Positions 3,915 through 39,401 of a stretch of DNA of 64,000 bases are shown piece by piece. Every line of letters starts with the position of its first letter. Positions within the stretch are counted from its first letter, which is position 1. The notes beneath the pieces were generated by a model. That model saw only the letters and a program-made list of their open reading frames with translations. It was not told where the DNA came from and made no database searches. The DNA is from Nitrosopumilus sp. GTDB taxonomy: Bacteria > Planctomycetota > Planctomycetia > Pirellulales > Pirellulaceae. The stretch covers positions 18,521 to 82,520 of the forward strand of contig CAXQOB010000012.1 of the NCBI GenBank assembly GCA_964225475.1. Reading direction: 5' to 3'. A program made the translations under genes and the position numbers.

Positions 3915-3968
3915 ATGGGTTATACGTTTTTCCGAGTACGTTTTGATACTAGTTTTGAATGAGATGAG

Positions 3969-9245: not shown

Positions 9246-9252
9246 AACAACC

Positions 9253-12054: not shown

Positions 12055-14745
12055 ATGAAGGGTGAAGATATTTTTAGGCCTGTTTTTTTACTGAGCATGA
12101 CGTTTTTGTTACGGGTCATTGTGCTGCCCGGCCTGCCCGTTATCTCTGCGGAAACGCAGGAGCTCCAATCACCCAGCAGCGATTTGACCTTGGGCCAAGT
12201 TCGAGACATGGGGCGAGAACGGAGTCGATTTGTAGGTGGGGATGAATCGCGTTCGGACGCGATCGCTACGAATCAAAAGCCGACATCGAATCTAAAGAAG
12301 TATCAAAGTGACGTTCGGTCAATTCTTGTCGAAAGTTGTCAAGACTGTCATGGGCCCGATGATTCTCAGGGGCGACTTCGAATTGATCAGATCGATCCAG
12401 ATTTACTTCAAGGTAAAGATGTCGCTCAGTGGCAAGAGATTTATGCTGCGGTTAGTCACTATGAAATGCCACCACAGGATGATGATGAGCACGTATTAGA
12501 TGAGGTAAAGCGAGGGGTTTTGGTTGACTGGTTGAGTGGTGAGCTGGCAAAAGCGTCAGTGATACAACGCAACAACGGTGTCGCTTCCTCTTTTCGACGA
12601 CTTACGAATTACGAATACAATTATGCTCTTCAGGATCTGCTCGGTCTGAATCATTCGTTGGCCAAAGAGTTACCACCAGAAACAACATCCGAGGAAGGGT
12701 TCAAGAATACCTCCTCGATGTTGCAAATGTCTGCAATGCAGTTTGCGACCTATCGAAAGATTGGATTGGAAGCTTTGCAGCGAGCCGTTGTCGGTGAGGA
12801 TCGACCAGAAACTGTGCGTTACGTTGTGAATATGGAGCAGGAATGGCAAAAAGCATCTGCAGCGACCCCTGACAAAGTTGTTGCGGCTGATAATGAGGCT
12901 TTTCCGAATCAGTTACGGAGATCGCATCTCTGGAACACTGAAACCCAGAGTGCGATACAGTTTTCATCGGGATCATGGAAGCCAGTTCAAGGCGATTCGG
13001 ACCACGCGATCAAGGTTGATTCCGTCGCTATGCTGTCTCTCCCGCGATCCGGAGAGTTGAAAATGAATCTTGATCGATTCTTGCCAGATCTTGGCATCAT
13101 GCGTGTGAGTGTATTGGCCAGTCGGACAACGGATGATCCAAATGAACACGCTGCATTGAGATTCATTTTTAGTGCTCACACGAGCAATAACGCAAACTTT
13201 ACGAATGAAATTAGCGAGCGAGATCTTCCAGTTCATGGTTCCATGGAAAAGCCGCAGTGGATTCATTTCGACATTCCACTTCAAGACATTCAACGCAATC
13301 CGTTTCGAAAGTTGGAGACAACTTTTCCGCGACGTGATGAGTTTTTGCACATTCGCAACATTGCAAATACCAACGGCAAGGACAATTCATTTCGGGTAAT
13401 GATTCACGGTATTGAAATCACGGCACCGTTTTATGATCGTTGGCCACCCAAGACACACACGGATATCTTTTTTGCCAGTGATAACCGTAAAGATGAGCAA
13501 GCTTACGGCGTGGAGGTATTGCAGCGGTTCTTGCAAAGGGTTTGGCGGAGACCCGTTGGGTTGCAGGAAGTTGAACCGTTTATGCAATTGTTCAATGGGT
13601 ATCGCAAGGACTTTGGTCGATTTGAGGACGCGATGGTTGAGGTCCTTGCAACTGCTTTGGCAACACCAGAGTTCCTCTATTTGCGTCAACATGCGGAAGG
13701 TCACCGGGATGAGAATCAGTTGCAGACCGATCAATTTGATTTTGCCTCCAAGCTGGCTGCGTTTCTCTGGTCGAGTCAACCTGATTCTGAACTCCTTAAT
13801 GTTGCGGAGAAAGGCAAGTTAACGGATCCTCGGGTTTTGGATCAGCAAATCTCTCGCATGCTCACCGACGTTAAGTCGGAGCGACTTAGCCAGCACTTCG
13901 TTTCGCAGTGGCTAGGGCTTGAGGGACTGGATGCAACGGTTCACGTGAAGGATCAAGAATTACTGAAGGCGATGCGATCGGAACCAATCGCGCTGTTCAG
14001 TGAGGTCCTTCGGGAAAACCGTAGTGTCGTGGATTTTCTCCATGCGGATTATGTGATGGTGAATGAACGGCTAGCACGCCATTACGGAATTCGTGATGTC
14101 TATGGTCCTGAATTTCAAAAAGTGAATGTGCAGGATTCCCAAAATCGAGGTGGGGTTTTGACCAGTGCTGCGGTGTTGGCAATGAATTCGGATGGAAAGG
14201 AGTCTCATCCACTGAAACGCGGTGTATGGATGTTGGAACGTATTCTGCATGATCCACCACCACCACCACCACCCAATGTTCCTGAGGTTGATCTCACGGA
14301 TCCAAGAATCTTGCAAATGACATTGAAGGAGCGGCTTGCTGATCATCGAAATCAATCGGCTTGTAAGTCATGTCACGCACGCATTGATCCTTGGGGGATC
14401 GCTTTTGAGCAGTACGATGCATTGGGTGCCTTTCGAACGAAATTAGGGAATCAGCCGGTGGACGCAAAGTCGATGCTGTTTAACCGCCAGATTTTAGATG
14501 GGATGGACGGGTTGAAGCGTTATTTGCTATCTGAAAGGCAGGATCAGTTTGCCGGTGCTATGGTTCATAAAATGCTAAGCTACGCCCTGGGACGTCAATT
14601 GACCTTCGGGGATCATGTTGAAATTGAGCGGATCACCCGAGAATTCCGTGCGAGTGAGGATCGGCTAGGGGATCTTGTGCGTTTGATTGTCAGGAGTGAA
14701 TTGTTTGCGAAATTGGACAAAGGCGATTCAATTGGTTTGAAGTAA
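12055..14745 (+). CDS. DUF1587/DUF1595/DUF1592/DUF1588/DUF1585 multi-domain protein with two CxxCH motifs
   Basis: CQDCHG; EMPP; RRLTNYEYNYALQDLLG; FLQRVWRRP; PEFLY; LAAFLWSSQPD; FVSQWL; RGGVLT; SHPLKRGVWMLERIL.DPPPPPPPNVP; CKSCHARIDPWG; KMLSYALGR. Confidence 0.93.
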   Translation: MKGEDIFRPVFLLSMTFLLRVIVLPGLPVISAETQELQSPSSDLTLGQVRDMGRERSRFVGGDESRSDAIATNQKPTSNLKKYQSDVRSILVESCQDCHGPDDSQGRLRIDQIDPDLLQGKDVAQWQEIYAAVSHYEMPPQDDDEHVLDEVKRGVLVDWLSGELAKASVIQRNNGVASSFRRLTNYEYNYALQDLLGLNHSLAKELPPETTSEEGFKNTSSMLQMSAMQFATYRKIGLEALQRAVVGEDRPETVRYVVNMEQEWQKASAATPDKVVAADNEAFPNQLRRSHLWNTETQSAIQFSSGSWKPVQGDSDHAIKVDSVAMLSLPRSGELKMNLDRFLPDLGIMRVSVLASRTTDDPNEHAALRFIFSAHTSNNANFTNEISERDLPVHGSMEKPQWIHFDIPLQDIQRNPFRKLETTFPRRDEFLHIRNIANTNGKDNSFRVMIHGIEITAPFYDRWPPKTHTDIFFASDNRKDEQAYGVEVLQRFLQRVWRRPVGLQEVEPFMQLFNGYRKDFGRFEDAMVEVLATALATPEFLYLRQHAEGHRDENQLQTDQFDFASKLAAFLWSSQPDSELLNVAEKGKLTDPRVLDQQISRMLTDVKSERLSQHFVSQWLGLEGLDATVHVKDQELLKAMRSEPIALFSEVLRENRSVVDFLHADYVMVNERLARHYGIRDVYGPEFQKVNVQDSQNRGGVLTSAAVLAMNSDGKESHPLKRGVWMLERILHDPPPPPPPNVPEVDLTDPRILQMTLKERLADHRNQSACKSCHARIDPWGIAFEQYDALGAFRTKLGNQPVDAKSMLFNRQILDGMDGLKRYLLSERQDQFAGAMVHKMLSYALGRQLTFGDHVEIERITREFRASEDRLGDLVRLIVRSELFAKLDKGDSIGLK

Positions 14746-14826
14746 ACTAGAGATGGAACCGTGTAAGCCACAAAGCTGGCTGCGGGTAACGATTTGGGTT
14801 TCGTCGAGAATCAGCTCGGTGCGAAT

Positions 14827-16242
14827 ATGCTGGAGGAGCAAGAGGTGTCACAAAAGAAAGCCAACTTGAATCGACGTCATTTCCTGCAGGGAACGGGCGT
14901 GGCACTGAGTCTTCCTTGGTTTGAGGCATTAGCGACAGAGCCTGACGCAATCAAACAGACGCCAAGACGTTTTCTGAGCGTCTATCATCCCGATGGTGTC
15001 GGCTTGCCTTTAAAATCAGATCCAGCATGGAATGATTGGAGTTGGTTTCCAAGAGGTGGTGAGCAGGATTTTGAATTAACAAAAGTCCTCGATGTGCTCG
15101 AACCGCTTCGAGGCGAAATAACAATCTACTCCGGCCTTTCTCATCCGGCCGCGAGGCGAGTTCATGGCCACTCCAACGCGGATCAATATCTCACAGGTGC
15201 AGACGTCGGAGGCCACGGTCCTTACAAGAATTCAGTTTCGTTGGATCAGGTCATTGCTGAATATGCTGGTGAATCAACACGGCATGCTTCTCTGGTCATG
15301 TCCACCAATGGCGGTGTTGGCGGTCCACGTGGGGCCCAGACTCAGTCATTCAATCGTGAAGGGCGTCCTATCCCAGCGATGAATCGTCCGAAGCAGATCT
15401 TCGATATGCTCTTTGTGACAAGTGGTAAACAAGCGGCTGAGAAGCTATCACGCAGCAAAAGCGCACTTGATCTTTTAATTGAGAACTCGAAGTCATTCAG
15501 CCGTAAGCTTTCCAGTGCTGATCGTGCAACCTTGCAGCAGTATCTCGATTCCGTTCGAGATACGGAAGTCAAGCTGGTCAAAGCTCAGAAATGGCTCGAC
15601 ACTCCGGTCCCAACGGTGGACACAAGCCGACTAGTGCTTGATGCAGAACCTAAAGAGGCACGACTCTATTTCCAGACAATGTATGAGTTGATCTACCTTG
15701 CCTTCATGAGTGATTCAACTCGAGTCGCAACCTTCCAGTTGGGTCGAGAGAATGGTGAGGGTCCGCACGATCTGCTATCCATGGCGGTTGGGCTCGGCGG
15801 TGCACATGGTCTCACTCATTCAGTCAAAAAGCCTGACGGTTGGAAGAATCTCGGTACCTACAATCGCTACCAAGCTGAGGAATTCGGATGCTTTGTTCAG
15901 CGGCTAAAAGATACGCAAGAGCCGAATGGAAATGGTACCTTGCTGGATAACACTTTTGCGATGCATGGCTCCGCGTCAAGCAGTTTCCATCTTTCACGGA
16001 ACTATCCCATTATCTCTGCCGGTGGTAAGAATCTTGGTTTCCAAAATGGACGTTATCTGAAATTTGGTCGCGGTAATGAAGATAATCAGGCGGGAGCGGG
16101 GATCGATACCGATGCTGGCTGGAGAGGTGAGATACAGGCTGAAGAACTTCCTTTGGCTCACCTTTTTGTCACCATCTTGCAAAGGATGGGTGTTGAGGCG
16201 AATTCATTCGCCGGATACACGGGCACGTTAGACCGCGTGTAA
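14827..16242 (+). CDS. DUF1552 (HXXSHH-type) Tat-exported protein, partner of the DUF1592 protein
   Basis: LNRRHFLQGTGVALSLPWFEAL; SVSLDQVIAE; DRATLQQYLDSVRDTE; FMSDSTRVATF; GTLLDNT; H..RNYPII.AGG; LAHLFVTILQRMGV. The ORF track starts at 14794. Confidence 0.92.
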   Translation: MLEEQEVSQKKANLNRRHFLQGTGVALSLPWFEALATEPDAIKQTPRRFLSVYHPDGVGLPLKSDPAWNDWSWFPRGGEQDFELTKVLDVLEPLRGEITIYSGLSHPAARRVHGHSNADQYLTGADVGGHGPYKNSVSLDQVIAEYAGESTRHASLVMSTNGGVGGPRGAQTQSFNREGRPIPAMNRPKQIFDMLFVTSGKQAAEKLSRSKSALDLLIENSKSFSRKLSSADRATLQQYLDSVRDTEVKLVKAQKWLDTPVPTVDTSRLVLDAEPKEARLYFQTMYELIYLAFMSDSTRVATFQLGRENGEGPHDLLSMAVGLGGAHGLTHSVKKPDGWKNLGTYNRYQAEEFGCFVQRLKDTQEPNGNGTLLDNTFAMHGSASSSFHLSRNYPIISAGGKNLGFQNGRYLKFGRGNEDNQAGAGIDTDAGWRGEIQAEELPLAHLFVTILQRMGVEANSFAGYTGTLDRV

Positions 16243-25241: not shown

Positions 25242-25450
25242 TGTGTTTTCCCTGCCAACGGTGCGTCTAATGCGCTCGATTCTGCAATTAAATTGGCAAG
25301 AACGATGCCGGTGCTACTCTCGGTCAGGATATGTTTACCATTGAGTTGACGCTGCTTTCGGTGAGCAATGATAATAACTTGGTGGTGTTGCGGTGGTATA
25401 CGGGGTCAAACGATCTTTCGAAAAGTTCGCCGTTTTATAAGTTGAGGCTG

Positions 25451-26731
25451 ATGAATCGATCTAATCTTTCGAAGAGGCTGACGGAATTTCGGGGGCACTT
25501 CTTTTCGTTGTATTGCATCATTGCTGCGTTCGGTACGTATTTTTGCATGTATGCATTTCGAAAGCCCTTCACCGCAGCGACCTATGAGGATTCAGAGTGG
25601 TTTGGCGTCGGGTTGAAAACCTTGCTGATCGCTTCACAAGTCGCTGGTTATACGCTTTCAAAATTCTTTGGCATTAAATTTGTCTCTGAAATCAAGAAGC
25701 GTCATCGCGGAATTGCGATTGTCATCTTGGTTTTATCTGCAGAATTAGCACTGCTGCTTTTTGCCGTGACCCCCGCGCCTTGGAACTGTATTTGGCTTTT
25801 TTTTAATGGGCTACCTCTGGGGATGGTGTTCGGGCTGGTTTTGGGGTTTCTGGAGGGGAGGCGAGTATCCGAGGTGCTGGCGGCCGGGCTGTGTGCCAGC
25901 TTTATTGTCTCCTCTGGATTCGTGAAGACGGTTGGTCGTGCTTTACTGCAAAATGAGTTCGTAACAGAATCATGGATGCCTTTCTTTACAGGGCTCCTGT
26001 TTCTTTTACCACTCCTTTTGTTTGTTGGGATGCTTTCACGAATTCCGGAGCCAAATGATCGAGATGTTCTGTCGCGATCCGCTCGAGATCCAATGGACAA
26101 AGAGACACGTTTTAAGTTTTTTCGAGGGCATGCGGTTGGATTATCAAGCCTGATTTTGATCTACATGTTGATCACAGTGGTACGTAGCCTCCGTGACGAT
26201 TTTGCTGTGGAAATTTGGTCTGATCTTGGGGTTGAGGACGAACCTGCCTTGTTCGCGATTTCTGAATTTTGGGTCATGTTTGGGGTAATCTTTATTAATG
26301 GATGCTTCAGTTTGATCAGTAATAATCGGGCTGCGTTTCTAAGTTCAATTGGTACAATTATCGTGGGCGGCGTCATCATCTTATCTGCTGTCTACGGACA
26401 CTACGTCGATTTCTTTTCGCCAATGACCCTTATCATTTTGCTTGGGGTCGGAATGTATCTTCCCTACGTCGCATTCCATACAACCATGTTCGAGAGGATG
26501 ATTGCCGTCTGTAAGGAGACAGGAAACGTCGGGTATCTGATGTATTTGGCAGACGCAGTTGGGTACCTGGGATATGTAGCAGTGCTTATATTTCGTAACC
26601 TCTATTCGGGGCAGCTCGGTTACCTTTCCTTATTGATGATTAGTGCATCGGTTGTCGCGATCGTGTCATCAGTGGTCACGGTTTGGTTGTTATTTCATTT
26701 CTACGCACGAACGACCCATTCATCTCGCTAG
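25451..26731 (+). CDS. DUF5690-family MFS-like transporter, putative phosphonate importer
   Basis: About 12 TM; YFCMYAFRKPF, SQVAGYTLSKFFGIKFVSE, NGLPLGMVFG, FLEGRR, MYLPYVAFHTTMFER, GYLMYLADAVGYLG. ATG at 25451; the ORF track starts at 25331. Confidence 0.85.
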   Translation: MNRSNLSKRLTEFRGHFFSLYCIIAAFGTYFCMYAFRKPFTAATYEDSEWFGVGLKTLLIASQVAGYTLSKFFGIKFVSEIKKRHRGIAIVILVLSAELALLLFAVTPAPWNCIWLFFNGLPLGMVFGLVLGFLEGRRVSEVLAAGLCASFIVSSGFVKTVGRALLQNEFVTESWMPFFTGLLFLLPLLLFVGMLSRIPEPNDRDVLSRSARDPMDKETRFKFFRGHAVGLSSLILIYMLITVVRSLRDDFAVEIWSDLGVEDEPALFAISEFWVMFGVIFINGCFSLISNNRAAFLSSIGTIIVGGVIILSAVYGHYVDFFSPMTLIILLGVGMYLPYVAFHTTMFERMIAVCKETGNVGYLMYLADAVGYLGYVAVLIFRNLYSGQLGYLSLLMISASVVAIVSSVVTVWLLFHFYARTTHSSR

Positions 26732-26748
26732 GAGGATGTTGCATCAAC

Positions 26749-27912
26749 ATGGAGAGTCAAGAAGCAGATCTCTTGGTGATTGGCGGTGGCGTTCTCGGCG
26801 CTTTTCATGCTTTTCATGCACTGCAACGCGGACTTCGTGTCACGATGTTGGAACGCAATTCCGAGCCTCTGGGAGCGACGGTGCGGAATTTTGGGCAGGT
26901 TGTTCCCTCGGGTATGGACTCTCACTGGCAGCAGTTGGGGCGACGGAGCCTCCAGATTTACCAGACATTGCAGAGCGAGGCAGATCTCTCGATTCGTCAG
27001 CAAGGTAGTATTTATATCGCTTCGGATGAGTGTGAATTGGCGCTGCTGGAGGAGCTGGCCGATATCAACCGCCAAAACGATTACTGCTCCGAGTTGTTGT
27101 CAGCGAAGCAATGCTGCGAACGTTATCCCGGGTTGAGAACCGACTACTGTAAAGGCGGTCTCTTCTTTCCCGATGAATTATCACTCAACCCTCGCGAGAT
27201 GATTCATCGATTGCATCGTCTGCTCAAGGCAAATGCTGATTACCACTGTTGTTTCAGTGCGGGGGTGAAAGAGCTCTCGGAAGTTGGTTCGGAAGGTGTC
27301 GTTGCAGTTACAGAATCGGATCAGCGTTATTACGCGAAACGAGCCATCTTGTGTGGCGGATGTGACTTTCGTTCACTGTTTCCTGATGTATTTCTTCGTA
27401 GCGGTTTGGTGACGGTTCAGTTGCAAATGACGCGTCTGAGGCCGAATACGGCTCAACGGTTACCTGGGAATATTTTGACAGGGTTGACGATCCGCCGGTA
27501 TGAAAGTTTTTCATTCTGTCCGTCTTGGCAATCCGTGCAGTCGCAGAATGACGGTGAGGATTTTGCCACGAAGTGGGGGATTCACATTCTATTCAAGCAG
27601 GAGGTAGACGGCGGGATGATCCTTGGGGATTCACACGAGTATGCAAAACTAGGTGAAGAGGCGAACCTAGACTTTGGTCTTCGGCAGGATATCACCGACT
27701 TCTTCATTCGCGAGGGTCGCAAGATTTTTGATTTGCCGCACTGGGAGATTGACACATCATGGATGGGGCGATACTCACAGACCTCTGACCCCTCTGGTAT
27801 CTTTAAAGAGACGATTGGAGACCGAATTCATATCGTTACCGGGATTGGTGGCAAGGGAATGACCGCGAGCCCTGGATTTGCTGAGAACCACATCGGGGAG
27901 ATTTTTTCATGA
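26749..27912 (+). CDS. FAD-dependent oxidoreductase, DAO-like, phosphonate-associated (TIGR03364-like)
   Basis: DLLVIGGGVLG (FAD binding); GATVRNFGQ; LTGLTIRRYESF; GIHILFKQ; ILGDSHEY; TGIGGKGMT. AGGAGG lies upstream of ATG 26749. Confidence 0.88.
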   Translation: MESQEADLLVIGGGVLGAFHAFHALQRGLRVTMLERNSEPLGATVRNFGQVVPSGMDSHWQQLGRRSLQIYQTLQSEADLSIRQQGSIYIASDECELALLEELADINRQNDYCSELLSAKQCCERYPGLRTDYCKGGLFFPDELSLNPREMIHRLHRLLKANADYHCCFSAGVKELSEVGSEGVVAVTESDQRYYAKRAILCGGCDFRSLFPDVFLRSGLVTVQLQMTRLRPNTAQRLPGNILTGLTIRRYESFSFCPSWQSVQSQNDGEDFATKWGIHILFKQEVDGGMILGDSHEYAKLGEEANLDFGLRQDITDFFIREGRKIFDLPHWEIDTSWMGRYSQTSDPSGIFKETIGDRIHIVTGIGGKGMTASPGFAENHIGEIFS

Positions 27913-28577
27913 TAAAGTTGGTCGTATTCGACATGGCTGGGACAACCGTTGATGAGGACAATGTTGTCTACAAGACGGTAAGAGCGGCGATCAATTCAGC
28001 CGGTTACTCTTTCACTCAAGATCAAGTGCAAGCGGCAGGCGCCGGTAAGGAAAAATCCCAGGCCATACGTGATGTTCTGGCTCTTGATGGATCGGAGCAT
28101 GATGAAGAAGAGGTGCAAGTCATCTTCGCTGATTTCAAGAGGCTTCTCGCCGCGGCTTACTGCGATCTAGATGTACGCGAGCAGCCCTACACCACAGAGG
28201 TCTTTGAAGCGTTACGTGAGCGGGGAATCAAAGTGGTGCTGAATACGGGATACGATCGAAAAACTGCAGAAAGCTTGATCGACAAGATTGGATGGAAACT
28301 GCATGAACACTTTGATGCATTGGTGACGGCCAGCGATGTCGAGAATGGTCGCCCGGCGCCCGATATGATTCACCTTGCTATGGATCGAGTTGGGGTCAGC
28401 GAATCCAAAGCGGTGGTCAAAATAGGTGACTCGCAAATTGATATTCACGAAGGTAAGAACAGTGATTGTGGAGTGACGATAGGGATTACAACAGGTGCTC
28501 AGACTCAGTCGCAACTATTGGAGGCCAGTCCAACATACATCATTCACTCACTGCGTGAATTATTAGAGCTTGTTTGA
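27909..28577 (+). CDS. Phosphonatase-like HAD hydrolase (PhnX-like, TIGR03351-like)
   Basis: VVFDMAGTTVDE (DxAGT, as in phosphonatases); GKEK; LNTGY; GRPAPDMI; KIGDSQIDI.EG. ATGA overlap with the oxidoreductase stop codon. Confidence 0.88.
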   Translation: MIKLVVFDMAGTTVDEDNVVYKTVRAAINSAGYSFTQDQVQAAGAGKEKSQAIRDVLALDGSEHDEEEVQVIFADFKRLLAAAYCDLDVREQPYTTEVFEALRERGIKVVLNTGYDRKTAESLIDKIGWKLHEHFDALVTASDVENGRPAPDMIHLAMDRVGVSESKAVVKIGDSQIDIHEGKNSDCGVTIGITTGAQTQSQLLEASPTYIIHSLRELLELV

Positions 28578-28778
28578 TTCTGGGGTAAGCTGCAGGGGTA
28601 GCTTTATTTGATATCGAGTCAATTCCGCAGTGTTATGGTTCTGCAAGCAGTGAAGAGGATCTGGCTGTTTATTTAACGATCCATCACATTCCGGTAGTGC
28701 ACAGGTGTGTTAGTCGGTGACGATTGCGTTACAATTCACACGAATTATGGGTCAGTTGTTTCTTTTTCGGAATATACA

Positions 28779-28973
28779 ATGAAAGTTACCGGTTTAAAAT
28801 TCTTGGCGTTAAGCTTTTTCGCTGTTTCACTATTTGGTTGCAACGCGTCAACGGAGCCCACCAATACGGTTGGTAATGCGGAGCAGTCTGCAATCGATGC
28901 ATACGAATCTGCGTTGGCAGAAGAAGAAGGAGCGATGGATGAAGCACCTCCATCGGAGGACTTGGAGGAGTAA
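28779..28973 (+). CDS. Small acidic lipoprotein (64 aa), of the kind found next to DUF1559 genes
   Basis: MKVTGLKFLALSFFAVSLFG-C lipobox; mature part rich in E/D/A; followed by a terminator. Confidence 0.75.
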   Translation: MKVTGLKFLALSFFAVSLFGCNASTEPTNTVGNAEQSAIDAYESALAEEEGAMDEAPPSEDLEE

Positions 28974-29043
28974 TCGCCCTCCACTCCAAGATCGATAAGG
29001 AGATGGGTGGTCATTTTGAAGTGAGATGCCTGATCCAAAATAA

Positions 29044-29073
29044 AAAACCCACTCAGTTACCTGAGTGGGTTTT
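29044..29073. terminator. Bidirectional intrinsic terminator between convergent genes
   Basis: Perfect 13-bp inverted repeat AAAACCCACTCAG-TTAC-CTGAGTGGGTTTT with an A-tract on the left and a T-tract on the right. Confidence 0.88.
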
Positions 29074-29110
29074 CTTTTTGCATCACGGTATTCGATTTGA
29101 ATCAATCTGA

Positions 29111-30367
29111 TTATTGATTCAACTGTTCCTCAATCGTTTCCTTCGAGGCGCGAGATCCGAGTGCACCCCACAAGCCATAAGGGCTTTCTGAGCCGGGAGT
29201 GTTGATGCGATTATTCAGCCAGACCATCGGTGCTCGGTTGTCGCCGGCTTCAATCGAATCCGTGATAAACACCACTGCTCCATCGGCCATTAGAACGTGC
29301 GCTCCACCTTGGTGACGACTCGAAGCGGACCATACACCGGTTTGACCGGCATTGTTTCCGCTGCAGATTTCTGCATTGGGTGGCAGAATCGTGTGGAACC
29401 CAGACGCATAGGGACGGAAATCCGCCCAGCGGTATCCGCGTCGTGCAGCCACACCATCCAATGCGACCCCCTGCGCCCAGAATCTTGGTCGCTCAGGGTC
29501 GATCTGCCCCTGATCAGCACACCACTTGGGATTGTCCCTAATGGATCTTGGTGGGTTCTGGCTACGGTTTCGCGTTGAGCTGGTGCGGTTATCGCGATCC
29601 CCTAGATCCGTCGCAATTTCACCCATTGCAACCGTATTAGCGAGTCCATCGAGAATATCACGGAATTTGGATTCCTTGTGAGGTACGAAGACACCACGAT
29701 CAGCTGCTCGACTCTGTCGATTCCAACCATTGTTGCTGAAGTTCATGATTCCAGGCGTGCGAAAGCGAAGGTGTCCTGGGCCTCGGACGGACCACCACAT
29801 TGAGTCGCCCATGCAGACGGCGTAGTTAGTTCTTCCCAAAGCAGGAAGGCCTTGGCCCGGATCACTCGGGCAACGCAGCGTTGGTATCTCAGTGACCCAA
29901 GGCTGGTAGCGGATCTGAGACGGCACTGGTCCCATTGCCGGCCAAGGTACCGTGTACGGTGTGTCAGGTGCTAAAGCATTAACAAGACTTGGATTGCTGA
30001 TCTGCTCCCAAACTGCCTGTTGCTCGATAAAGGGGGTGAGCCCAACAAGTGCACTCAGACGCCAGGCATTCGCAGCGCCATAGTTGGACCACCAGTTGGT
30101 CGTAGCTCCCCTGCTACCCGCAGGTGCGATTCCACCGAGTGTATCGGTGCCGGCACCATGAGTTGGTAACTGCTTGTAGGCACTGTGGTAGTTATGGATG
30201 GCTAAACCGATTTGTTTGAAATTATTGCTGCAGCTCATTCGCCTCGCTGCTTCCCTCGCAGCTTGAACCGCCGGCAACAACAAGCCAACAAGAATACCGA
30301 TGATGGCGATCACCACCAGAAGTTCGACAAGGGTAAATCCCAAGCGATCTTTTTTATTAATCTTCAT
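29111..30367 (-). CDS. DUF1559 prepilin-type N-terminal cleavage/methylation protein with H-X9-DG motif
   Basis: G|[39 protein letters not shown]; LRCPSD; RTNY; [24 protein letters not shown] 5 nt before ATG 30367. Confidence 0.95.
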
Positions 30368-30672
30368 GAACACTCCTATGAGATAAGGGAACTACGGTTG
30401 AGTAGGCTAACAGCTTTGACCTAGTTGCTGAAGATTTGTCCCACATTATGGTTTCAAAAACTCGGTTTTTCTCTACGTAGAGGGCAGAACTCTCTACTAC
30501 TTGGTGGGGCAGAAACCACCATCCTTTTCCCCTTCAATCCTTGTCATTAGATGTGATTGAAAATCAGGATTGATCCTAGATCGCCCACGGAGAAGTCCTC
30601 AGCTCACCGAGTCTCGGTTGGAAATATGATCTTAGCGACGAGTTTGACTGCGGGATGGAAGAGGGTTCACCA

Positions 30673-33600
30673 TCAAGGGTTTGATGGATGATAGGTGAAG
30701 GGTTGCTGATCAGCTTCTGTGAGCAGGTGTTGATGGTTGGTTTCAAGGTTCTTGAATTGCTGGGTCAGGCCGCTGGGCCATTGCACCTCGACATCGCATC
30801 GTAGAACTGCTTGACCTAAACCGATTCGCAGTGTTCTCTCGTTGCTGCATAGGTAGCCATCGCCGGCTAGTAGCCAAGCTGACCATGTCTGCTCATCGGA
30901 TTTGACTCGGATTAAGGAACCCACAGCGTCCCGACTACTGGCCGTGCCTCTCAGATCGAGACTGATCCGTGTTCCAACCTGCGTGCAGTGATTAATAAGT
31001 AACGCTGTTGGCTCGGTTTGATGGGTTACCACAAAATCTGATGCGTGGTCACCATTGGCGTCGATCGTCCATAACGCACGAGCCACGTGTGGATTCTGGA
31101 AGTACTCACTTTTGATTTGCTCCCCAACGGAAACGTAGGTGGAGGATTCACCGCGTTGAAAGAGTTGCATGGGATGTTCATAGAGAGATTTTTCATTTCC
31201 ACGAGAGAACATGTCCACGTGACCGTTAGCGACAATCAGTTCTAATTTCCCACTTGCATTCAAATCGACAGCTTCTGTACCAAATCCAACCAAAGGCATT
31301 GTGCATGACGCAAGATTCACGGTGGATGTAACATCTTGCCAAAGCCCCGAAGAACGATTGTCGTGCAAAGTGTTGTATTCTTTGTCAAAGTTTGTGACGT
31401 AAAAATCAAGATCGCCATCCTGATCAAAGTCTGCCGAGGCGATCCCCATCGACCCTTGAGAAAGTGCTCGATCATCAGTGCCAAGGCCTCTCAACATGCC
31501 TGATTCGATCAGCAAATCTTGCGGTTTATCACTCTCGCTTTTCTGTCGGAATGACCAGAGATGATTGTTGGTCATGTCGTTGGCAATGAAAATGTCGTTT
31601 CCGACCTCTTCATCCAATGCGCCAACAACAATTCCCAATCCACGTCCTAGTACAGTAGGTTTTGCTTTCCAAGTTTTGGTGCAGTCTTTTAATCTTCCAT
31701 CAGCTTGTGCTTGATAGAAATGATCGGCAGCTGCTGCGAATTTCACCGGGCTACAGGATCGAAAGACATCACTCTCTGGCATCGGGCATGTTACCGTAAC
31801 GGGTTCAGTTCCATCGCAGTAATTCACAATGGCAATATCATTTAAACCATCTCCGTTCAGATCTGCGATCGCCCCGCTTGTTGACCATTGTGGCTCATTG
31901 ATATCCAAAAGTTGCGTGCGATCAGAGAAGGTTCCATCTCCGTTGTTTACCAGCAGGGTGTTGGGGCCATAATTCAGAATCAAGAGGTCCGGAAATCCGT
32001 CTTCATTGATGTCGCCCACTGCGATGCCTTGAGTGAATCCGCGTTCATCCGAATTAGAAGCAAGGGAGCATTCGGTGAAGTGCCCGAGTTGATTTCGAAA
32101 AAGAGCGTTGGGTTTGGAGTCCTTCCTCGGTGGCTTTCCCTCCGCCGCAGCAAGGTAGAGATCGCTCCAGCCATCGAGGTCAAAGTCTAAGGTTCCACCA
32201 CCACAACCAAGTGTTTGGTAGAGCATGATTCCTGGTTGATCAAGCTTGTCACTGGTTTTCCCAAAGAAATCTAAGCCTCGCTTCATCGCTTCGTTGCTAA
32301 GCTCGTAGGTTGAGGTTTTATCTGGCACGCCGGACAGCGCTGCTCTTCGAACCGGGTTGAACCGGCTGATTGACGGGATCTCCAGACTGGTTAAGTCGAT
32401 CTGCAATTCAGGAGAATTGAGAGTGGTCTGCCACGGCGTGTCACGAGATAATTGACTGATTAACTCAGCACGGGTCTCTTCCGCTTTGACGGCATCATCT
32501 TCAGGTAACTGCAAAGCGATTGAGCACCATGCCTCTGCTTCCCAAAGTCGACCCAGCTTCTGTAATGTTTTTGCAAGTTCGATTGCGGTTTCCCTAGAGA
32601 CTCCTCCGGTACGCTCAAATTTTTGCTTCTGTTGGTTGAAAGTGCTTAGCAAAGTGGCTCTTTGATCGATGCGTTCCAAGAGCGAGTCGGTGAATATAGA
32701 TCTAGTTGTGAACGGTTCATTCGCTTCAGTGGCTACCGTTTCTGAATTAATCAGCATGCGTTTTACGGTCAGGCTTAGCTTGGTCCAGGCCTCCACTAAG
32801 TCTGAATCCACTTTGGTTGCTTCCCAGTAACACCTCGCGGCTTCACGAAACTTTTCCTTAGCCCTTGCCCAGTCGCCCATCGCCATCCAGTATTCGGGGT
32901 AGCCAACGATACTGACCGTCAATTGGTCGACCCATTTCTCAAAGGCTTTCCAATCTCCGTCGCCCGCAAGGGACCTGCCGAGTAAACCTTGTGCAGGGGC
33001 GTATTCGGGATAGGGGTCAACGATGCTTTGAAGGATTTTTATTGCACCATCAAAATCACGTTCGTCATATTTTTGACGCGCATAACCGAGAAGAGGTCGC
33101 GTATCATCGGGATTGCGTTCTGTCATTTGCAAGAGTGGTTGAGCATCCATCGTTCGATATTCGGTATTGCTCAATGCTTTCAGTAATTCAACGTCAAATT
33201 TTCTAACGCGAATCAAGTAACGCCCGTGTGGCAGACCCGCCTGTCGATCTTCGCTTCCCATCAACAGGTCGAATAACCATCGACGTGATTCGTGTTGCTC
33301 AGGGTGTTCATTCACTGCGTTCGAGAGTAGTTCCAATCCATCGAATAAGTCACCCACACTCACCATCGCAATCATTGCCTGTTGGACTCGTTTGGGGTTG
33401 GTATAGTTATCGGCGACACACGCGAGCTTCAGGTATTTGGCTGCATCGTCAGCTCTCTGTGTATCGTTTGCCAAGCGAGCCAGCTTTGTTAACACCTCAG
33501 GATCATCACTGTGGTCAGCGGCAACCTGTTCGGCATAGCTCCACGCTTCCTCGAAAAGACCCCTGCGAATAGCAGATTCCATCGCACGCAGTGGACGCAC

Positions 33601-33897
33601 CGTTGGATGCTGGACCGATTTTGGTGGTTCCGTTCCACAGCCTCCGGTCAAAAGTAAGGTGATGCAGGTGATCAACAGAGCGATCAAGTTTTGCTTGGAG
33701 ACTTGGAGCCTGATTCTCAGCAAGGCATCGCACAGGGAACAGCCGCCGTCCAAGGAAATGGGTGGATGGTCAAGGCAGTCATTTTGCTTGATGGACCCTG
33801 TGGGACGGACGTGTGACATGAGGTTTGGCGCTGATGGGTACGAAAAGTTGTTTAGGTAACTCGAGAAATAAACTGGCGTTGTTTGTTGCCGTTCCAT
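30673..33897 (-). CDS. TPR + FG-GAP (CRTAC1-like) + ASPIC/UnbV protein, probable lipoprotein
   Basis: Lipobox-like LLLTGGC; TPR-like helical N-half; DFDLDGWSD, DINEDGFPD, DLNGDGLND, DFDQDGDLD; C-terminal RDAVGS...GDGYLCSNERTLRIGLG. The true start is probably about 190 nt downstream of 33897. Confidence 0.9.
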   Translation of the reverse strand: MERQQTTPVYFSSYLNNFSYPSAPNLMSHVRPTGSIKQNDCLDHPPISLDGGCSLCDALLRIRLQVSKQNLIALLITCITLLLTGGCGTEPPKSVQHPTVRPLRAMESAIRRGLFEEAWSYAEQVAADHSDDPEVLTKLARLANDTQRADDAAKYLKLACVADNYTNPKRVQQAMIAMVSVGDLFDGLELLSNAVNEHPEQHESRRWLFDLLMGSEDRQAGLPHGRYLIRVRKFDVELLKALSNTEYRTMDAQPLLQMTERNPDDTRPLLGYARQKYDERDFDGAIKILQSIVDPYPEYAPAQGLLGRSLAGDGDWKAFEKWVDQLTVSIVGYPEYWMAMGDWARAKEKFREAARCYWEATKVDSDLVEAWTKLSLTVKRMLINSETVATEANEPFTTRSIFTDSLLERIDQRATLLSTFNQQKQKFERTGGVSRETAIELAKTLQKLGRLWEAEAWCSIALQLPEDDAVKAEETRAELISQLSRDTPWQTTLNSPELQIDLTSLEIPSISRFNPVRRAALSGVPDKTSTYELSNEAMKRGLDFFGKTSDKLDQPGIMLYQTLGCGGGTLDFDLDGWSDLYLAAAEGKPPRKDSKPNALFRNQLGHFTECSLASNSDERGFTQGIAVGDINEDGFPDLLILNYGPNTLLVNNGDGTFSDRTQLLDINEPQWSTSGAIADLNGDGLNDIAIVNYCDGTEPVTVTCPMPESDVFRSCSPVKFAAAADHFYQAQADGRLKDCTKTWKAKPTVLGRGLGIVVGALDEEVGNDIFIANDMTNNHLWSFRQKSESDKPQDLLIESGMLRGLGTDDRALSQGSMGIASADFDQDGDLDFYVTNFDKEYNTLHDNRSSGLWQDVTSTVNLASCTMPLVGFGTEAVDLNASGKLELIVANGHVDMFSRGNEKSLYEHPMQLFQRGESSTYVSVGEQIKSEYFQNPHVARALWTIDANGDHASDFVVTHQTEPTALLINHCTQVGTRISLDLRGTASSRDAVGSLIRVKSDEQTWSAWLLAGDGYLCSNERTLRIGLGQAVLRCDVEVQWPSGLTQQFKNLETNHQHLLTEADQQPFTYHPSNP

Positions 33898-34386
33898 TGA
33901 TCGTTGCCGCTCAACCGATCGCTGCCAGTGAATCGATAACCGGCCGATTCCTGTAACTCATTGTTTCAAATCCGATTCCGCTTGCAACGGGCTAGGGTTG
34001 GTCGCAAGGATTTGGTTTGTGAAATACGGCTGAGGTCACGCGCAAACCGTTCTGATCAACAAGTTATCGGTGATGACGGATCAGGATTGCAGAAGCGTTA
34101 GCACGAGGGATGGAGAAGCAATGAAATGGTTTGGCTCACCAACGGTTATTGTATTGGATTTTTTTCGGTCACCACCCGGCCGGTGGGAGTCATTGAATCT
34201 GTTCGGCCGTTTTACCTGTCAATGGACCTGCATTTGTGTTGGTCGCCTGTTTTTTTAACCGATGGTAAAGATCATTCTAGATTTGTCTCCACCCAAAAGC
34301 TGTGTTTTTGATGCTTGTTTTGTAACTTACGTCAGACGAATTCGTGGTATTCTTGACGCCACGCTGTTTTCTTTGTTCCATCACCG

Positions 34387-36057
34387 ATGACCTCCATGCA
34401 GAAACCTCAACAACGAGCTGTCGCACGCTTCGGCGGTAATCATGTAAGAGTCGCGAGGCAGGTGATCAGCTCAGCGGCTTCACTGCTGGTCTTGTGGGGG
34501 CTTTTGCTTGCCTTGGGGTGTGATCGGCAGAAAGGCGGTTCGGTTGGTTCCCCTCCCGGTCCTCAGATTTCGCTGGACAAGGGAGGTCAAGACTTGGGCT
34601 CTGAGCCGAGGGATGAAACAGGTACCCTTAGCGCGGAAAGGGTCGCTTATATCGATGAAGTTAGACCCCGCGTGGAAGCGTTTTGTGGTGATTGCCATGC
34701 GATGCCACGGCCAGCGAGTTCTACCAAAGAAATGTGGGTCGAGGAGGTCAATCAGGGATTCACGCTTTACGGAAAATCAGGTCGAAATGATCTGGTCGTG
34801 CCTTCGTACGAAGAGGTGCTCAAGTTTTTTCAATACCAAGCTCCGACGGAGATCAAGCTTCCACCTTCGATTGACAACTATCCTGCTTGCACGCTTAATC
34901 TAGAGCTGAGTGGTGTGCGGATGGAGGGTCCTCGTCCTCCCGGGATTACCAACGTTCGTTGGATTGATCTGGGAATCGGTAACTCAGCCACCCTCGTCTA
35001 TTGCGACATCGGAACAGGAATGGTCAAAGGCCATTGGCCCAATGATCCTGATCGTGCGTCGGTGAGGCTCTCTACACTTCTTCAGCCTGTTCATGTTGAG
35101 TCCTGTGATTTGGATTCCGATGGTTTGACTGACCTTGTGGTTGCCGATATCGGTGAATTCAATGCAGAAGATAGTCAGCTTGGACGGGTTGTTTGGTTGA
35201 GAAGAAAAGAAGGCGTTGAAACTTTCGACAAAATCGTGATTCGTGATGGGTTAAGCCGAGTCGCCGACGTTCAGCCCGGAGATTTTGATTCCGATGGTGA
35301 TGTGGATCTATTGGTCGGTGTGTTTGGGTGGCGAGCAACCGGCGAGATTTTACTACTGGAAAACCAAGGCATTAACAAGGAGGGCGTTCCCGAGTTCAAG
35401 GACCGTGAGATCGATTCACGACATGGTGCAGTGAATGTTCCTTGTACTGATCTCAATGGCGACGGACATTTGGACTTCGTTGCTTTGCTGAGTCAGGAGC
35501 ATGAGGTCGTTGACGCGTTCATTAACGATGGCTCTGGTAACTTTACCACGGAAAGGATTTGGTCCGCCCCGGATCCTGCTTATGGGTCAAGCGGCATCGA
35601 ATTGACCGATCTCGATGGTGATGGTGATCAGGATATTCTCTTCACGAATGGAGATTCATTTGATCGTGGTGCCAAGCCTTACCACAGCGTGCAATGGCTC
35701 GAAAATAATGGCGGCTACCCATACGTTCATCATCACATCTGTGAGATGCCGGGAGTGCTGAACGCCACCGCTGCAGATTTTGATGGCGATGGCGATCAGG
35801 ATGTCGTGGCGGTGGCGCTGCTCGCCGGTGATGATTATGAGGAACTCGTGAAACGCCAAACTTCATCCGTTGTGTTTTTGCAGCAGATGGCGCCTGGTGA
35901 GTTTGCGAGATTTCAGGTTGAGGCGAAAACTCCCACGCATCTTTCGGTCGAGGCCGGTGATTTCAATGAAGATGGCAAGTTGGATTTTGCAGTAGGACCC
36001 TTTCTTCGGTCTGGCGCAGCGAAGGAACCTGAGTTGCAGATTTGGTCAGTGCGCTGA
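34387..36057 (+). CDS. FG-GAP/VCBS beta-propeller lipoprotein with an N-terminal CxxCH heme motif
   Basis: LLLALG-C lipobox; FCGDCHAMPRP; repeats DLDSDGLTD, DFDSDGDVD, DLNGDGHLD, DLDGDGDQD, DFDGDGDQD, DFNEDGKLD. Confidence 0.88.
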   Translation: MTSMQKPQQRAVARFGGNHVRVARQVISSAASLLVLWGLLLALGCDRQKGGSVGSPPGPQISLDKGGQDLGSEPRDETGTLSAERVAYIDEVRPRVEAFCGDCHAMPRPASSTKEMWVEEVNQGFTLYGKSGRNDLVVPSYEEVLKFFQYQAPTEIKLPPSIDNYPACTLNLELSGVRMEGPRPPGITNVRWIDLGIGNSATLVYCDIGTGMVKGHWPNDPDRASVRLSTLLQPVHVESCDLDSDGLTDLVVADIGEFNAEDSQLGRVVWLRRKEGVETFDKIVIRDGLSRVADVQPGDFDSDGDVDLLVGVFGWRATGEILLLENQGINKEGVPEFKDREIDSRHGAVNVPCTDLNGDGHLDFVALLSQEHEVVDAFINDGSGNFTTERIWSAPDPAYGSSGIELTDLDGDGDQDILFTNGDSFDRGAKPYHSVQWLENNGGYPYVHHHICEMPGVLNATAADFDGDGDQDVVAVALLAGDDYEELVKRQTSSVVFLQQMAPGEFARFQVEAKTPTHLSVEAGDFNEDGKLDFAVGPFLRSGAAKEPELQIWSVR

Positions 36058-37224: not shown

Positions 37225-37647
37225 TTACCAATCCAACTCATCAGGAAGGTCTTCTTCCATTTCTGCGTTGGAGCTGAACATGAGAAACTTACCATCCTCG
37301 AAGCAGTAGGTTGCGATGAGATTTGGCTCTTCATCAGCAAATGAAATCACAAATACAAATTTGTCGTACCCCACTTCGTCTGGTTCAGGCGCCACTTCCA
37401 CATACGAGAGATGATTCTCGTCTCGTGCTGAGAGAATCGACCAATTGACCAGAGTGTCATCTCCGGTTCCAACGTGCTCACGACCCCATGCGGTGATGTT
37501 GTCGGCGAGGATTTGACCTCGCGGGCCATCGGGGATTATCCCCTCGTGCACGGCGGGTGGTTCTGGCGTGGCCGTCTCAGTAGGTGGTGTTGTCGTATTG
37601 CAGCCGCCAAACAGCAAACCGCAGAGGATCGATACTAGTTTCTTCAT
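37225..37647 (-). CDS. Hypothetical acidic lipoprotein
   Basis: MKKLVSILCGLLFGG-C lipobox; T/P-rich linker; acidic globular domain. Confidence 0.75.
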   Translation of the reverse strand: MKKLVSILCGLLFGGCNTTTPPTETATPEPPAVHEGIIPDGPRGQILADNITAWGREHVGTGDDTLVNWSILSARDENHLSYVEVAPEPDEVGYDKFVFVISFADEEPNLIATYCFEDGKFLMFSSNAEMEEDLPDELDW

Positions 37648-37664
37648 TGCGACACCATCATTCG

Positions 37665-37696
37665 TGGGTTGATTGCAGTTTATGGGTTGATTGCAG
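37665..37696. repeat. Perfect 14-bp direct repeat (period 18 bp)
   Basis: TGGGTTGATTGCAG at 37665-37678 and 37683-37696, separated by TTTA, 18-49 bp upstream of the lipoprotein ATG. Confidence 0.9.
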
Positions 37697-38117
37697 GATG
37701 GAGAGGGTGACACCCCGGGCCGTGGCCTCCAATCCCAGCACCCGGTGATTCATGCTGCTGGTTAATGGATCCTGCTGGCAATTGTATACCCTATTTTACG
37801 TCAAATTACAGGTTTTCCGTATGGAACTGCTCTGGTTGCCAGCTGGGCAGTGGTGTTTCAATCCAGCGGAGATCGAGTCGGACCTCTCTTGGCAGCCACC
37901 ATCGAGAGCCAAGTCAAAGGTCATCTCTCGATGTCACGAGTCCGATTGAACAGAATCTGCTTGGATGCCTACCCGTCAGATGAAATCCCGCCTCAGAGAA
38001 CACCAAAATTTGTACCCCGACCTCTAATCCTGTTACATTTGGGTTAATGCATGGAGCGGCATCGATGATGCGAAGCTGAAATGACATCCTCTAAGTCCAC
38101 AGGCGTGAGGCGGTTCA

Positions 38118-39401
38118 ATGAGCGAGAGTTCCATATCTTTTTGTCGATCAATCGATCAATGGTCGTTAGCTGGAGGTAATCTCGAGGAGGTGCTATCCGT
38201 CTACGAGGGGCACACAATCTCCACTTCGGCGGAGGTCGAAGCGATCTGCCGAGCGTTGGATTCTTTGCATGCAAATTACCAGGCATTGGTCGGCACCGAT
38301 GATCGACCTTTGGGATTGTTAGCGAGTTATCTTTTTTCGCCGTGCAATGCAGAGGTTATGGAGTCGATTGTGAGTGGCGCGTTGCCATTATTAAGGTGGT
38401 ACGTTACCGACGCTTTATCGAAGAAACCGTATGAGCCAGCGGATTTATTAAAAGTCTTGCAACTGCTGGCGATGTTTCGTCAGAAAGAGGATATCTCGCT
38501 GATTTTTAAATCGATTCTTTTTCCAATCGAGCCAAAAGATGAAGCTTGGTTTGAGATCTTGGCCAGTTTCCGTGACAAGCATCCTTACCTCAGACCCTTT
38601 CTTCAGGCGTTGGCACAGAGGCCACCGTCGGGGCAGGCTGGTCTGGCCTTTCAGAATTTGTGCGATCACGTTGTGTTAACAAAGCAATTGTTGCCACATG
38701 CCTTCAATTCAGAGGCTGGAATGAAGCAGTTGCGAGGATACCTGCAGCCGTCGGGTCAAACCTTACCCCAGCATGCAAGGGCAGCGGTGCAGTCCGCAGC
38801 ATTTTTGGAGGAGGAAAATCGCGAAAGCCTTTTTGATCTCGCGAGCCAGCATCCGGACGAGGCTATTGTCTTTTTAGTGAATGTCACTCAGGCAAAGTTG
38901 GGGGACACCAGCCAGGAGGATGTGCTCAGGGAGCGTTGCGCCGATGTTTGTCTAAGCTACGAGACGCAACTGAAATTAAGGGAGATTGGAATGGAAGCCT
39001 TGATTCCGCAGGAAGCGGTTGAGCCTGAATTTCTTGCTTGCGCGAAAACCGCACACTGGCTGATTCACGAGAGTCCGTATCGCCGTGCGCCAGACCGCAT
39101 GCGAGTGGTTGATGAGCGTGAACTGTTTTGGTTACCACAGCATCAGCCGGTCTATTTATACGCGGTAATCTATGAATACGATCAGCCACAAGGAGAGTCA
39201 GGCCTGACCGACGGGATCGCAGTGGTGGGTGGCATCACCTGTTCGCTCATTGATGAAACCAATGCGAAGATGGATCTCGCGGATGTTTACGGATTGCATT
39301 GCTGCTGGGAACTTGAGCAATTAAATGACCCGGTAGCACCGAGGCACCGTACGCCCAAAATTGGGCGAAACCTGCTCCGAAAGAACAATCCCGATTTCTG
39401 A
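38118..39401 (+). CDS. Hypothetical protein with a HEAT-like helical N-terminal/central region
   Basis: 427 aa, helix-rich, natural composition; no catalytic motif recognised. Confidence 0.75.
   Translation: MSESSISFCRSIDQWSLAGGNLEEVLSVYEGHTISTSAEVEAICRALDSLHANYQALVGTDDRPLGLLASYLFSPCNAEVMESIVSGALPLLRWYVTDALSKKPYEPADLLKVLQLLAMFRQKEDISLIFKSILFPIEPKDEAWFEILASFRDKHPYLRPFLQALAQRPPSGQAGLAFQNLCDHVVLTKQLLPHAFNSEAGMKQLRGYLQPSGQTLPQHARAAVQSAAFLEEENRESLFDLASQHPDEAIVFLVNVTQAKLGDTSQEDVLRERCADVCLSYETQLKLREIGMEALIPQEAVEPEFLACAKTAHWLIHESPYRRAPDRMRVVDERELFWLPQHQPVYLYAVIYEYDQPQGESGLTDGIAVVGGITCSLIDETNAKMDLADVYGLHCCWELEQLNDPVAPRHRTPKIGRNLLRKNNPDF

Follow-up and report, generated by a model that had tools for sequence, protein, structure and literature searches.

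We examined a 64,000-nucleotide stretch (the window) of contig CAXQOB010000012.1 (positions 18,521 to 82,520 of the forward strand; NCBI GenBank assembly GCA_964225475.1, deposited as Nitrosopumilus sp. and placed by GTDB in the family Pirellulaceae of Planctomycetota) and found that four genes at window positions 28779-36057 form a conserved, non-random gene block. The block encodes a pilin-like DUF1559 protein, a small acidic lipoprotein (the mini-lipoprotein), a TPR-bearing lipoprotein with a CRTAC1-like FG-GAP propeller and an ASPIC/UnbV domain (the TPR-propeller), and a second FG-GAP propeller lipoprotein with a CxxCH haem-attachment motif (the haem-propeller). All four open reading frames (ORFs) were confirmed as real genes with these features after their coordinates and translations were checked. 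We infer, with a probability of roughly 45%, that the locus is an envelope module for substrate capture and redox processing, which would draw on pilus or type II secretion system (T2SS) machinery encoded in trans. No publication describing the four-gene block was found and no characterised system has this composition, yet every part comes from a known domain family.

The genome (5.25 Mb in 233 contigs), that of a marine Rubripirellula, was compared with 36 genomes of the same genus. Orthologues of the haem-propeller (at least 54% identity) were present in 11 of the 36 genomes, and in seven genomes (G003, G004, G014, G015, G020, G030 and G031) the orthologue lay directly beside the best TPR-propeller orthologue, in divergent orientation. 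The order haem-propeller and TPR-propeller divergent, DUF1559 downstream of the TPR-propeller, and mini convergent with DUF1559 was found in G031, G015 and G020, and the same four-gene order spans contig breaks in G014 and G027. The genes flanking the block differed between genomes even at 91% DUF1559 identity. Beyond the mini gene, the window has a DUF5690/DAO/HAD operon, G031 a metallo-hydrolase-like gene and then a 539-aa ORF, and G015 and G020 a sulfatase-esterase gene; at the other end, the G031 gene beyond the haem-propeller was unrelated to the metallophosphatase gene of the window. Orthologous flanks were ruled out as the cause of the synteny, since both flanks of the G031 copy differ from those of the window. 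This indicates that the four genes behave as one bounded unit, the flanks changing while the block stays intact. A decayed copy was found in G019 (L016 9242-12816), where the haem-propeller and mini genes are intact, the TPR-propeller gene has been deleted and only a fragment of DUF1559 is left.

An earlier reading of the same DNA from its letters (the original prediction) had treated the four genes as one locus without giving their strands. The association stood, being conserved and non-random, but a single operon did not, as the four genes are transcribed in three directions. The mini gene is convergent with the DUF1559 gene, with a terminator-like hairpin (stem of 13-15 bp, T-runs on both strands) in between; the TPR-propeller and DUF1559 genes are in tandem with a 300-bp spacer; and the haem-propeller and TPR-propeller genes diverge, the region between the two presumably containing the promoters of both.

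Adjacency was counted from the gene coordinate tables of 15 related genomes, a check that the original prediction had named. At least 25 of 150 DUF1559 genes lay within 1 kb of a CRTAC1-like (TPR/FG-GAP/ASPIC) gene compared to ~1.3 expected from paralogue numbers, and at least 37 lay within 5 kb compared to ~3.1 expected; the 150 genes are part of 207 matches, so that these adjacency figures are lower bounds. Pairs within 1 kb were thus ~19 times more frequent than expected, and all four relative orientations were present among them. The mini gene, too, nearly always neighbours a DUF1559 gene: a profile of the mini family gave 40 matches (E ≤ 2e-5) in related genomes, and 30 of these 40 best matches sit 96-345 bp 3' of a DUF1559 gene (15 related genomes). 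The co-occurrence that had been anticipated was therefore borne out.

The same prediction had linked the locus to haem, and this link proved real and recurrent. In the genome under study all three loci that combine DUF1559 with a CRTAC1-like gene (C12, C64 and C198) also encode a c-type haem protein. In C12, the window, this is the single-haem propeller; in C64 it is a 620-aa c554-like protein with seven CxxCH motifs and a C-terminal TPR region, and in C198 a c554-like protein of 479 aa that also has seven such motifs. In a set of 16 genomes, a CRTAC1-like gene lay within 1 kb of 12 of the 49 c554-like cytochrome genes, where ~0.5 were expected (~24-fold). One cluster of R. lacrimiformis (G003) contains both kinds of haem protein together with DUF1559 and several CRTAC1-like genes. 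That two non-homologous haem proteins occupy one slot would be difficult to account for if the function did not involve redox chemistry.

Related arrangements were found in other genera. Novipirellula sp. SH528 has the divergent propeller pair with two DUF1559 genes after the TPR-propeller, and Roseiconus lacunae has the four-gene order with the mini gene co-directional with DUF1559. The divergent propeller pair of R. nitratireducens lies at a contig end. Stieleria varia has a tandem of TPR-propeller and haem-propeller genes, 41-43 bp apart, without DUF1559. A cluster in a Ca. Anammoximicrobium metagenome-assembled genome (MAG; L033 4024-16587) encodes two haem-propellers, three DUF1559 proteins, a 405-aa seven-haem protein and a 666-aa two-haem protein, and has no TPR-propeller. 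Outside Planctomycetota the haem-propeller family keeps the same architecture in Verrucomicrobiota and Bacteroidota. On a Verrucomicrobiota contig the haem-propeller gene is followed after 4 bp by a gene for a 1253-aa ASPIC protein, and the Dyadobacter gene faces a SusC–SusD–FG-GAP/ASPIC operon. The order in Mucilaginibacter (L040 727-15119) and a Bacteroidota MAG (L036) is ASPIC protein, PAP2-superfamily protein, haem-propeller, GH3, haem-propeller, GH2 and amine oxidase. The Bacteroidota loci that pair a haem-propeller with an ASPIC propeller contain no pilin. A CRTAC1-like gene was found within 10 kb in 10 of 19 haem-propeller loci; the cross-phylum search behind this figure keyed on calcium-loop patterns general to FG-GAP proteins, and true haem-propellers made up ~20 of the 80 loci listed. 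The ASPIC protein of the L040/L036-type locus is a 1195-aa double FG-GAP/ASPIC protein, its GH2 enzyme is exo-glucosaminidase-like and its amine oxidase is of the flavin type; the function of this locus is apparently undescribed.

The DUF1559 protein is 418 aa long when started at the ATG at 30367, and a 418-aa protein in public collections is 100% identical to it. Its N-terminus carries the class III signal G/FTLVE followed by a hydrophobic stretch, and F11, T12, L13 and E15 were invariant in 33 sequences. It scored above the cut-offs of PF07963 (31.9 bits, cut-off 21.2), TIGR02532 (25.7 bits, cut-off 16.3), PF07596 (208.5 bits, cut-off 23.3) and the H-X9-DG model TIGR04294 (34.7 bits, cut-off 19), which agrees with the prepilin features (G/FTLVEL and H-X9-DG) recognised in the original prediction. 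The cut-off of the GspG equivalog TIGR01710 was missed (40.5 compared to 88.85 bits, the match covering residues 12-87 only), as were those of the PilA and ComGC equivalogs in NCBIfam. In the structure model (predicted local distance difference test score, pLDDT, 81; predicted template modelling score 0.81) a 52-residue pilin-type alpha-1 helix (residues 13-64) leads into a large, globular head that is predicted to be mostly irregular, with few regular elements after the helix and with an H-X9-DG hairpin. Foldseek found no PDB fold match to the head beyond the helix and none at E < 0.001, and the only PDB matches, by structure as well as by sequence, were to the N-terminal alpha-1 helices of pilins, the best by sequence being Geobacter PilA-N. 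A solute-binding fold, as implied by the Pfam identifier SBP_bac_10, was ruled out, as the model has no two-lobed fold and Foldseek returned no binding-protein match; the predicted structure contradicts the label 'solute-binding protein' given by the Pfam identifier and in older literature (PMC2754498).

The C-terminal tail of DUF1559 (...IEEQLNQ; window 29111-29185) is conserved in ~80% of the 120 closest homologues, and all eight close paralogues within the genome have it; its last 10 residues were modelled with low confidence. A tail that is flexible in the model yet conserved is what one expects of a short linear docking motif. C-terminal acidic peptides are common ligands of TPR domains, and candidate receptors, judging from sequence, are the TPR domain of the neighbouring propeller and that of the TPR-bearing cytochrome. 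The genome has ~20 DUF1559 genes and relatives have far more. There are 74 in R. baltica, some of them stress-responsive (PMC2754498), and 68 in P. limnophila, where they make up the largest paralogue group and two are essential (PMC10632474). Proteins with N_methyl and SBP_bac_10 domains fractionate with membranes, and genes for signal-peptide proteins often flank theirs (PMC8567305). None of the literature found to mention DUF1559 assigns it a function.

The mini-lipoprotein has 64 aa, with a signal peptide ending in a lipobox (...SLFGC), the motif NAEQSAIDAYESALAEEE and an acidic C-terminus. Gene calls for it exist on 49 public contigs, and G20, C21, A34, A38 and Y42 were invariant in the family alignment. 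By its sequence and placement it belongs to a small family whose genes are associated with the 3' side of DUF1559 genes; two clear mini genes occur in the genome. The 30 mini genes next to DUF1559 were nearly evenly divided between co-directional (16) and convergent (14) orientations, and so tight an adjacency with flipped orientation is unusual. An active invertible switch around the mini gene is unlikely, the flanking inverted repeats being weak (17 nt, 76% complementary).

The TPR-propeller ORF is open from 30673 to 33897 on the minus strand, and homologues align only from about residue 70. The TTG at 33723 is the likely start, as it yields a putative signal peptide M-RIRLQVSKQNLIALLITCITLLLTGG/C, ending ...LLLTGG/C, whose lipobox cysteine is kept in four orthologues. 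Pfam matches were to TPR_19, FG-GAP_3 (100.8 bits) and UnbV_ASPIC (53.3 bits, cut-off 23.4), and the protein matched CRTAC1 (PDB 9etn) with E = 7e-8. The genome encodes 12 paralogues of it.

The haem-propeller, encoded once in the genome, has 556 aa with the lipobox ...LALG/C45 followed by a disordered linker. In 30 homologues (45-66% identity) G44-C45, the haem-attachment motif C100-x-x-C103-H104 (C100-G-D-C103-H104 in the window protein) and the DxDxDGD calcium ladders were invariant. The CxxCH motif was also invariant in 22 homologues from several phyla, and across phyla the invariant residues are C, C, H and W in the N-terminal domain and H433 in the propeller. The model (pLDDT 84.7) predicts the linker, a helical domain of ~75 residues and a seven-bladed FG-GAP calcium propeller. 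CxxCH ends the first helix of the modelled helical domain; in class I cytochromes c it likewise stands at the end of the first helix. The PDB matches of the model were, in order, murine CRTAC1 (9etn), aldos-2-ulose dehydratase and integrin alpha subunits. Pfam gave no UnbV_ASPIC match, so that the likeness to CRTAC1 is in the propeller only. The haem domain alone retrieved 284 clusters at 50% identity, nearly all of them with the domain N-terminal in proteins of 500-570 aa. Assignments of the original prediction thus hold for all three lipoproteins: the lipobox cysteine, called on motif evidence, is conserved among homologues of the mini-lipoprotein, the TPR-propeller and the haem-propeller, and the two propellers are told apart, as it had proposed, by TPR and ASPIC/UnbV domains in one and an invariant CxxCH in the other.

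The scan of window ORFs turned up no pilus ATPase (T2SSE), secretin, PilY1 or further N_methyl/pilin gene; the scanned ORFs also contain no minor-pilin cluster, DUF1559 being their single pilin-like gene, and no TonB-dependent receptor or SusD. The original prediction had likewise noted that an ATPase and a secretin are missing from the window and had placed the machinery in trans, which is plausible: elsewhere the genome has at least 10 T2SSE/PilB/PilT-family ATPase genes as well as A24 prepilin peptidase genes. With these enzymes encoded, processing of DUF1559, and possibly its assembly, is feasible. One close paralogue of DUF1559, at C95:1892-4490, shares the C-terminal tail and is divergent from a neighbouring T2SSE-family ATPase gene; no other direct connection of this DUF1559 subfamily with assembly machinery was seen.

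In the reading that we favour, the module would consist of the pilin-like DUF1559 protein, its cognate mini-lipoprotein, a TPR-bearing CRTAC1-type propeller and a c-type haem protein, the last being a single-haem CRTAC1-type propeller here and a c554-like seven-haem cytochrome in the sister loci. After cleavage by prepilin peptidase, DUF1559 would either remain in the cytoplasmic membrane or be assembled, by machinery encoded in trans, into a short pseudopilus. Together with the mini-lipoprotein it may tether, position or deliver lipoprotein partners, docking perhaps through insertion of its own tail (…IEEQLNQ) or of the acidic mini tail into the TPR domain. The two propellers would bind or transform an extracellular or periplasmic substrate, with electrons moving via the covalently bound haem of the haem-propeller. 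The substrate would most likely be a glycan-type polymer, a suggestion made because homologues of the haem-propeller sit in Bacteroidota SusC/SusD loci.

Several observations weigh against such a module. The haem-propeller can be separated from the rest: in G008 and G026 it lies elsewhere while the TPR-propeller, DUF1559 and convergent mini genes are still together, and in Stieleria marina it occurs alone. Only ~17-25% of the DUF1559 paralogues examined have a CRTAC1-like neighbour; with so few of them adjoining CRTAC1-like genes, DUF1559 is not dedicated to a CRTAC1-like partner. Most of the counts come from one genus, and loci that are orthologous do not count as independent events. When four orthologous TPR-propeller/DUF1559 spacers were aligned, no conserved regulatory or RNA element was seen beyond the ribosome-binding site. 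Residues 1-191 of the haem-propeller, which include the haem domain, matched no cytochrome model in Pfam or NCBIfam at E up to 1. The Pirellulales haem-propeller subfamily is without the LPxM insert, from which a Met ligand could come in the other phyla; H433 would be one candidate for the sixth haem ligand. The glycan link comes from the Bacteroidota context only, by analogy, and no glycoside hydrolase gene adjoins the block in the window.

An alternative use of the same parts is a secretion adaptor, which we regard as unlikely though deserving of attention. DUF1559 would then be a cargo-specific pseudopilin of a T2SS-like machine that, with the mini-lipoprotein, escorts neighbour-encoded exported proteins to the surface; the cargo here would be the two propeller lipoproteins, and their function would be independent of DUF1559. 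The prepilin signal with E5 and the pilin-type helix fit this role, as do the many DUF1559 paralogues with diverse exported neighbours (also PMC8567305), the assembly genes elsewhere in the genome and the C95 paralogue beside an ATPase gene. The best PDB sequence matches were to Geobacter PilA-N, and a possible secretion role has been discussed for the PilA-N/PilA-C filament (PMC12954529). However, the GspG equivalog cut-off was missed (40.5 compared to 88.85 bits), the globular domain of DUF1559 is ~3 times as large as a pseudopilin and so ill-suited to packing into a piston, and in Bacteroidota the haem-propeller/ASPIC pair occurs without any pilin. Surface export of planctomycetal lipoproteins is, moreover, uncharacterised. 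Somewhat more doubtful still is the function put forward in the original prediction, a pilus-tip or adhesin cassette, with DUF1559 as a modular pilin displayed by a type IV pilus encoded in trans and the propellers as adhesins, chaperones or modifying enzymes. Besides the prepilin features, it can point to integrin-like, CRTAC1-like propellers as typical binding modules, to pili-like fibres of planctomycetes that bind gold-labelled dextran (PMC5394234), and to modular pilins with grafted adhesion domains (PMC8179133). It did not hold up well against the gene content. The scanned window ORFs offer no minor-pilin set and no PilY1-like, secretin or ATPase gene; ~20 DUF1559 paralogues in this genome, and dozens in others, would be unusual for a tip adhesin; homologous propeller pairs lie in pilin-free nutrient-uptake loci of the SusC/SusD type; and two unrelated kinds of haem protein are conserved partners, where an adhesin needs none. 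These points lead us to favour substrate handling with redox chemistry over adhesion.

That the genes form no functional unit, their adjacency reflecting shared descent and the sheer abundance of DUF1559 and CRTAC1-like paralogues, seems to us very improbable. The predominance of one genus in the data, the three transcription directions, the separable haem-propeller (G008, G026 and Stieleria marina) and the decayed G019 copy all speak for it. Against it stand an enrichment of 19- to 24-fold over the paralogue-based expectation, the intact block amid differing flanking genes, adjacency that persists in several orientations and beyond the genus and the phylum, and the repetition of the same three-way composition at paralogous loci of one genome. 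Substrate capture with redox processing could also be taken considerably further, in a joint reading that we hold to be rather improbable as a whole. DUF1559 and the mini-lipoprotein would then be the planctomycetal counterpart of SusC/SusD, that is, pilin-based devices for substrate capture and import, in which each DUF1559 paralogue would be paired with surface proteins of its own; the propeller pair would be an unrecognised extracytoplasmic oxidoreductase acting on complex glycans from Planctomycetota to Bacteroidota; and the TPR domain would read the DUF1559 tail.

Comparison with known systems brings out what is particular to the block. DUF1559 resembles type IV pilins and T2SS pseudopilins (PilA and GspG; Geobacter PilA-N, PDB 9egp/7tgg) in G/FTLVE, Glu5, the ~52-residue alpha-1 and the C-terminal beta-hairpin region, but differs in its ~350-residue head without a PDB fold match, its tens of paralogues and the lack of adjoining assembly genes. 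It is like PilB of Streptococcus sanguinis (PMC8179133) in concept, a pilin N-terminus joined to a large additional module that would supply the function; it differs in that its module is no recognised adhesion domain and its gene does not lie in a pilus operon. With cartilage acidic protein 1 (CRTAC1, 9etn) both window propellers have the calcium FG-GAP propeller in common, and the TPR-propeller also shares ASPIC/UnbV. The window proteins, in contrast, are bacterial lipoproteins with no EGF-type domain by Pfam, the TPR-propeller adding an N-terminal TPR domain of ~400 residues and the haem-propeller a CxxCH domain while having no ASPIC. Bacteroidota SusC/SusD loci contain homologues of the haem-propeller and the ASPIC propeller, with GH3 and GH2, and DUF1559 and mini hold in our block the neighbouring position of SusC/SusD, which is a positional analogy only; the window differs in having no TonB-dependent receptor or SusD among the scanned ORFs. 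Quinohaemoprotein alcohol dehydrogenases and cytochrome cd1 nitrite reductase are propeller enzymes with a fused cytochrome c domain. The haem-propeller resembles them in being exported and in combining a c-type haem domain with a beta-propeller, but its propeller is of the FG-GAP calcium type, with no pyrroloquinoline quinone or d1-haem signature and no sequence relationship to them. A 2025 study placed a CRTAC1-family FG-GAP gene in hydrazine-synthase-like haem-protein clusters (PMC12758564), so that there, as in our block, haem proteins are co-localised with a CRTAC1-family gene.

The block provides the first reproducible genomic context for several large families of unassigned function, and DUF1559 is among the largest protein families in Planctomycetes. 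A four-part module with defined partners makes the DUF1559, CRTAC1/ASPIC and haem-propeller families a testable system, and it would be a concrete candidate for macromolecule capture or uptake by planctomycetes, which are without SusC/SusD-type systems. The Bacteroidota link suggests a widespread, overlooked redox step in polymer turnover.

Coordinates of the block features within the window, with the evidence for each
Feature	Window positions	Strand	Evidence
Mini acidic lipoprotein gene	28779..28973	+	Family alignment; adjacency to DUF1559 genes
Bidirectional intrinsic-terminator-like hairpin	29042..29075		Inverted-repeat search; terminator-like site on both strands
DUF1559 / prepilin-type gene	29111..30367	-	Pfam; NCBIfam; structure model
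TPR + FG-GAP + ASPIC/UnbV lipoprotein (CRTAC1-like) gene	30673..33723	-	Pfam; orthologues; synteny
Divergent intergenic region between TPR-propeller and haem-propeller genes	33724..34386		Gene coordinates
Haem-propeller lipoprotein gene	34387..36057	+	Pfam; alignment; structure model

Next to the mini gene, and outside the conserved block, a three-gene set on the plus strand (25331-28577) encodes a DUF5690 membrane protein, a DAO-family flavin adenine dinucleotide oxidoreductase and a HAD hydrolase, a composition that we take to resemble aminoethylphosphonate-type phosphonate catabolism; the set is followed by its own terminator-like hairpin (28587-28604). On the other side of the block, a 162-aa lipoprotein (37225-37713, minus strand) and a 427-aa protein (38118-39401, plus strand) had no Pfam match. 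The rest of the scanned window ORFs are ordinary planctomycete content, such as sulfatases, PSCyt/DUF1501 and PSD/DUF1552 pairs and an H+-pyrophosphatase. Two classical planctomycete pairs lie at 816-5453 and 12055-16242, namely PSCyt1-PSCyt2-PSD1 with DUF1501 and PSD/PSCyt3 (DUF1592/1588/1585/1587/1595) with DUF1552. At 5629-10173 the genes for a cytochrome c, a DUF7133 protein and a ThuA-domain protein are adjacent, the first two being coupled or overlapping.

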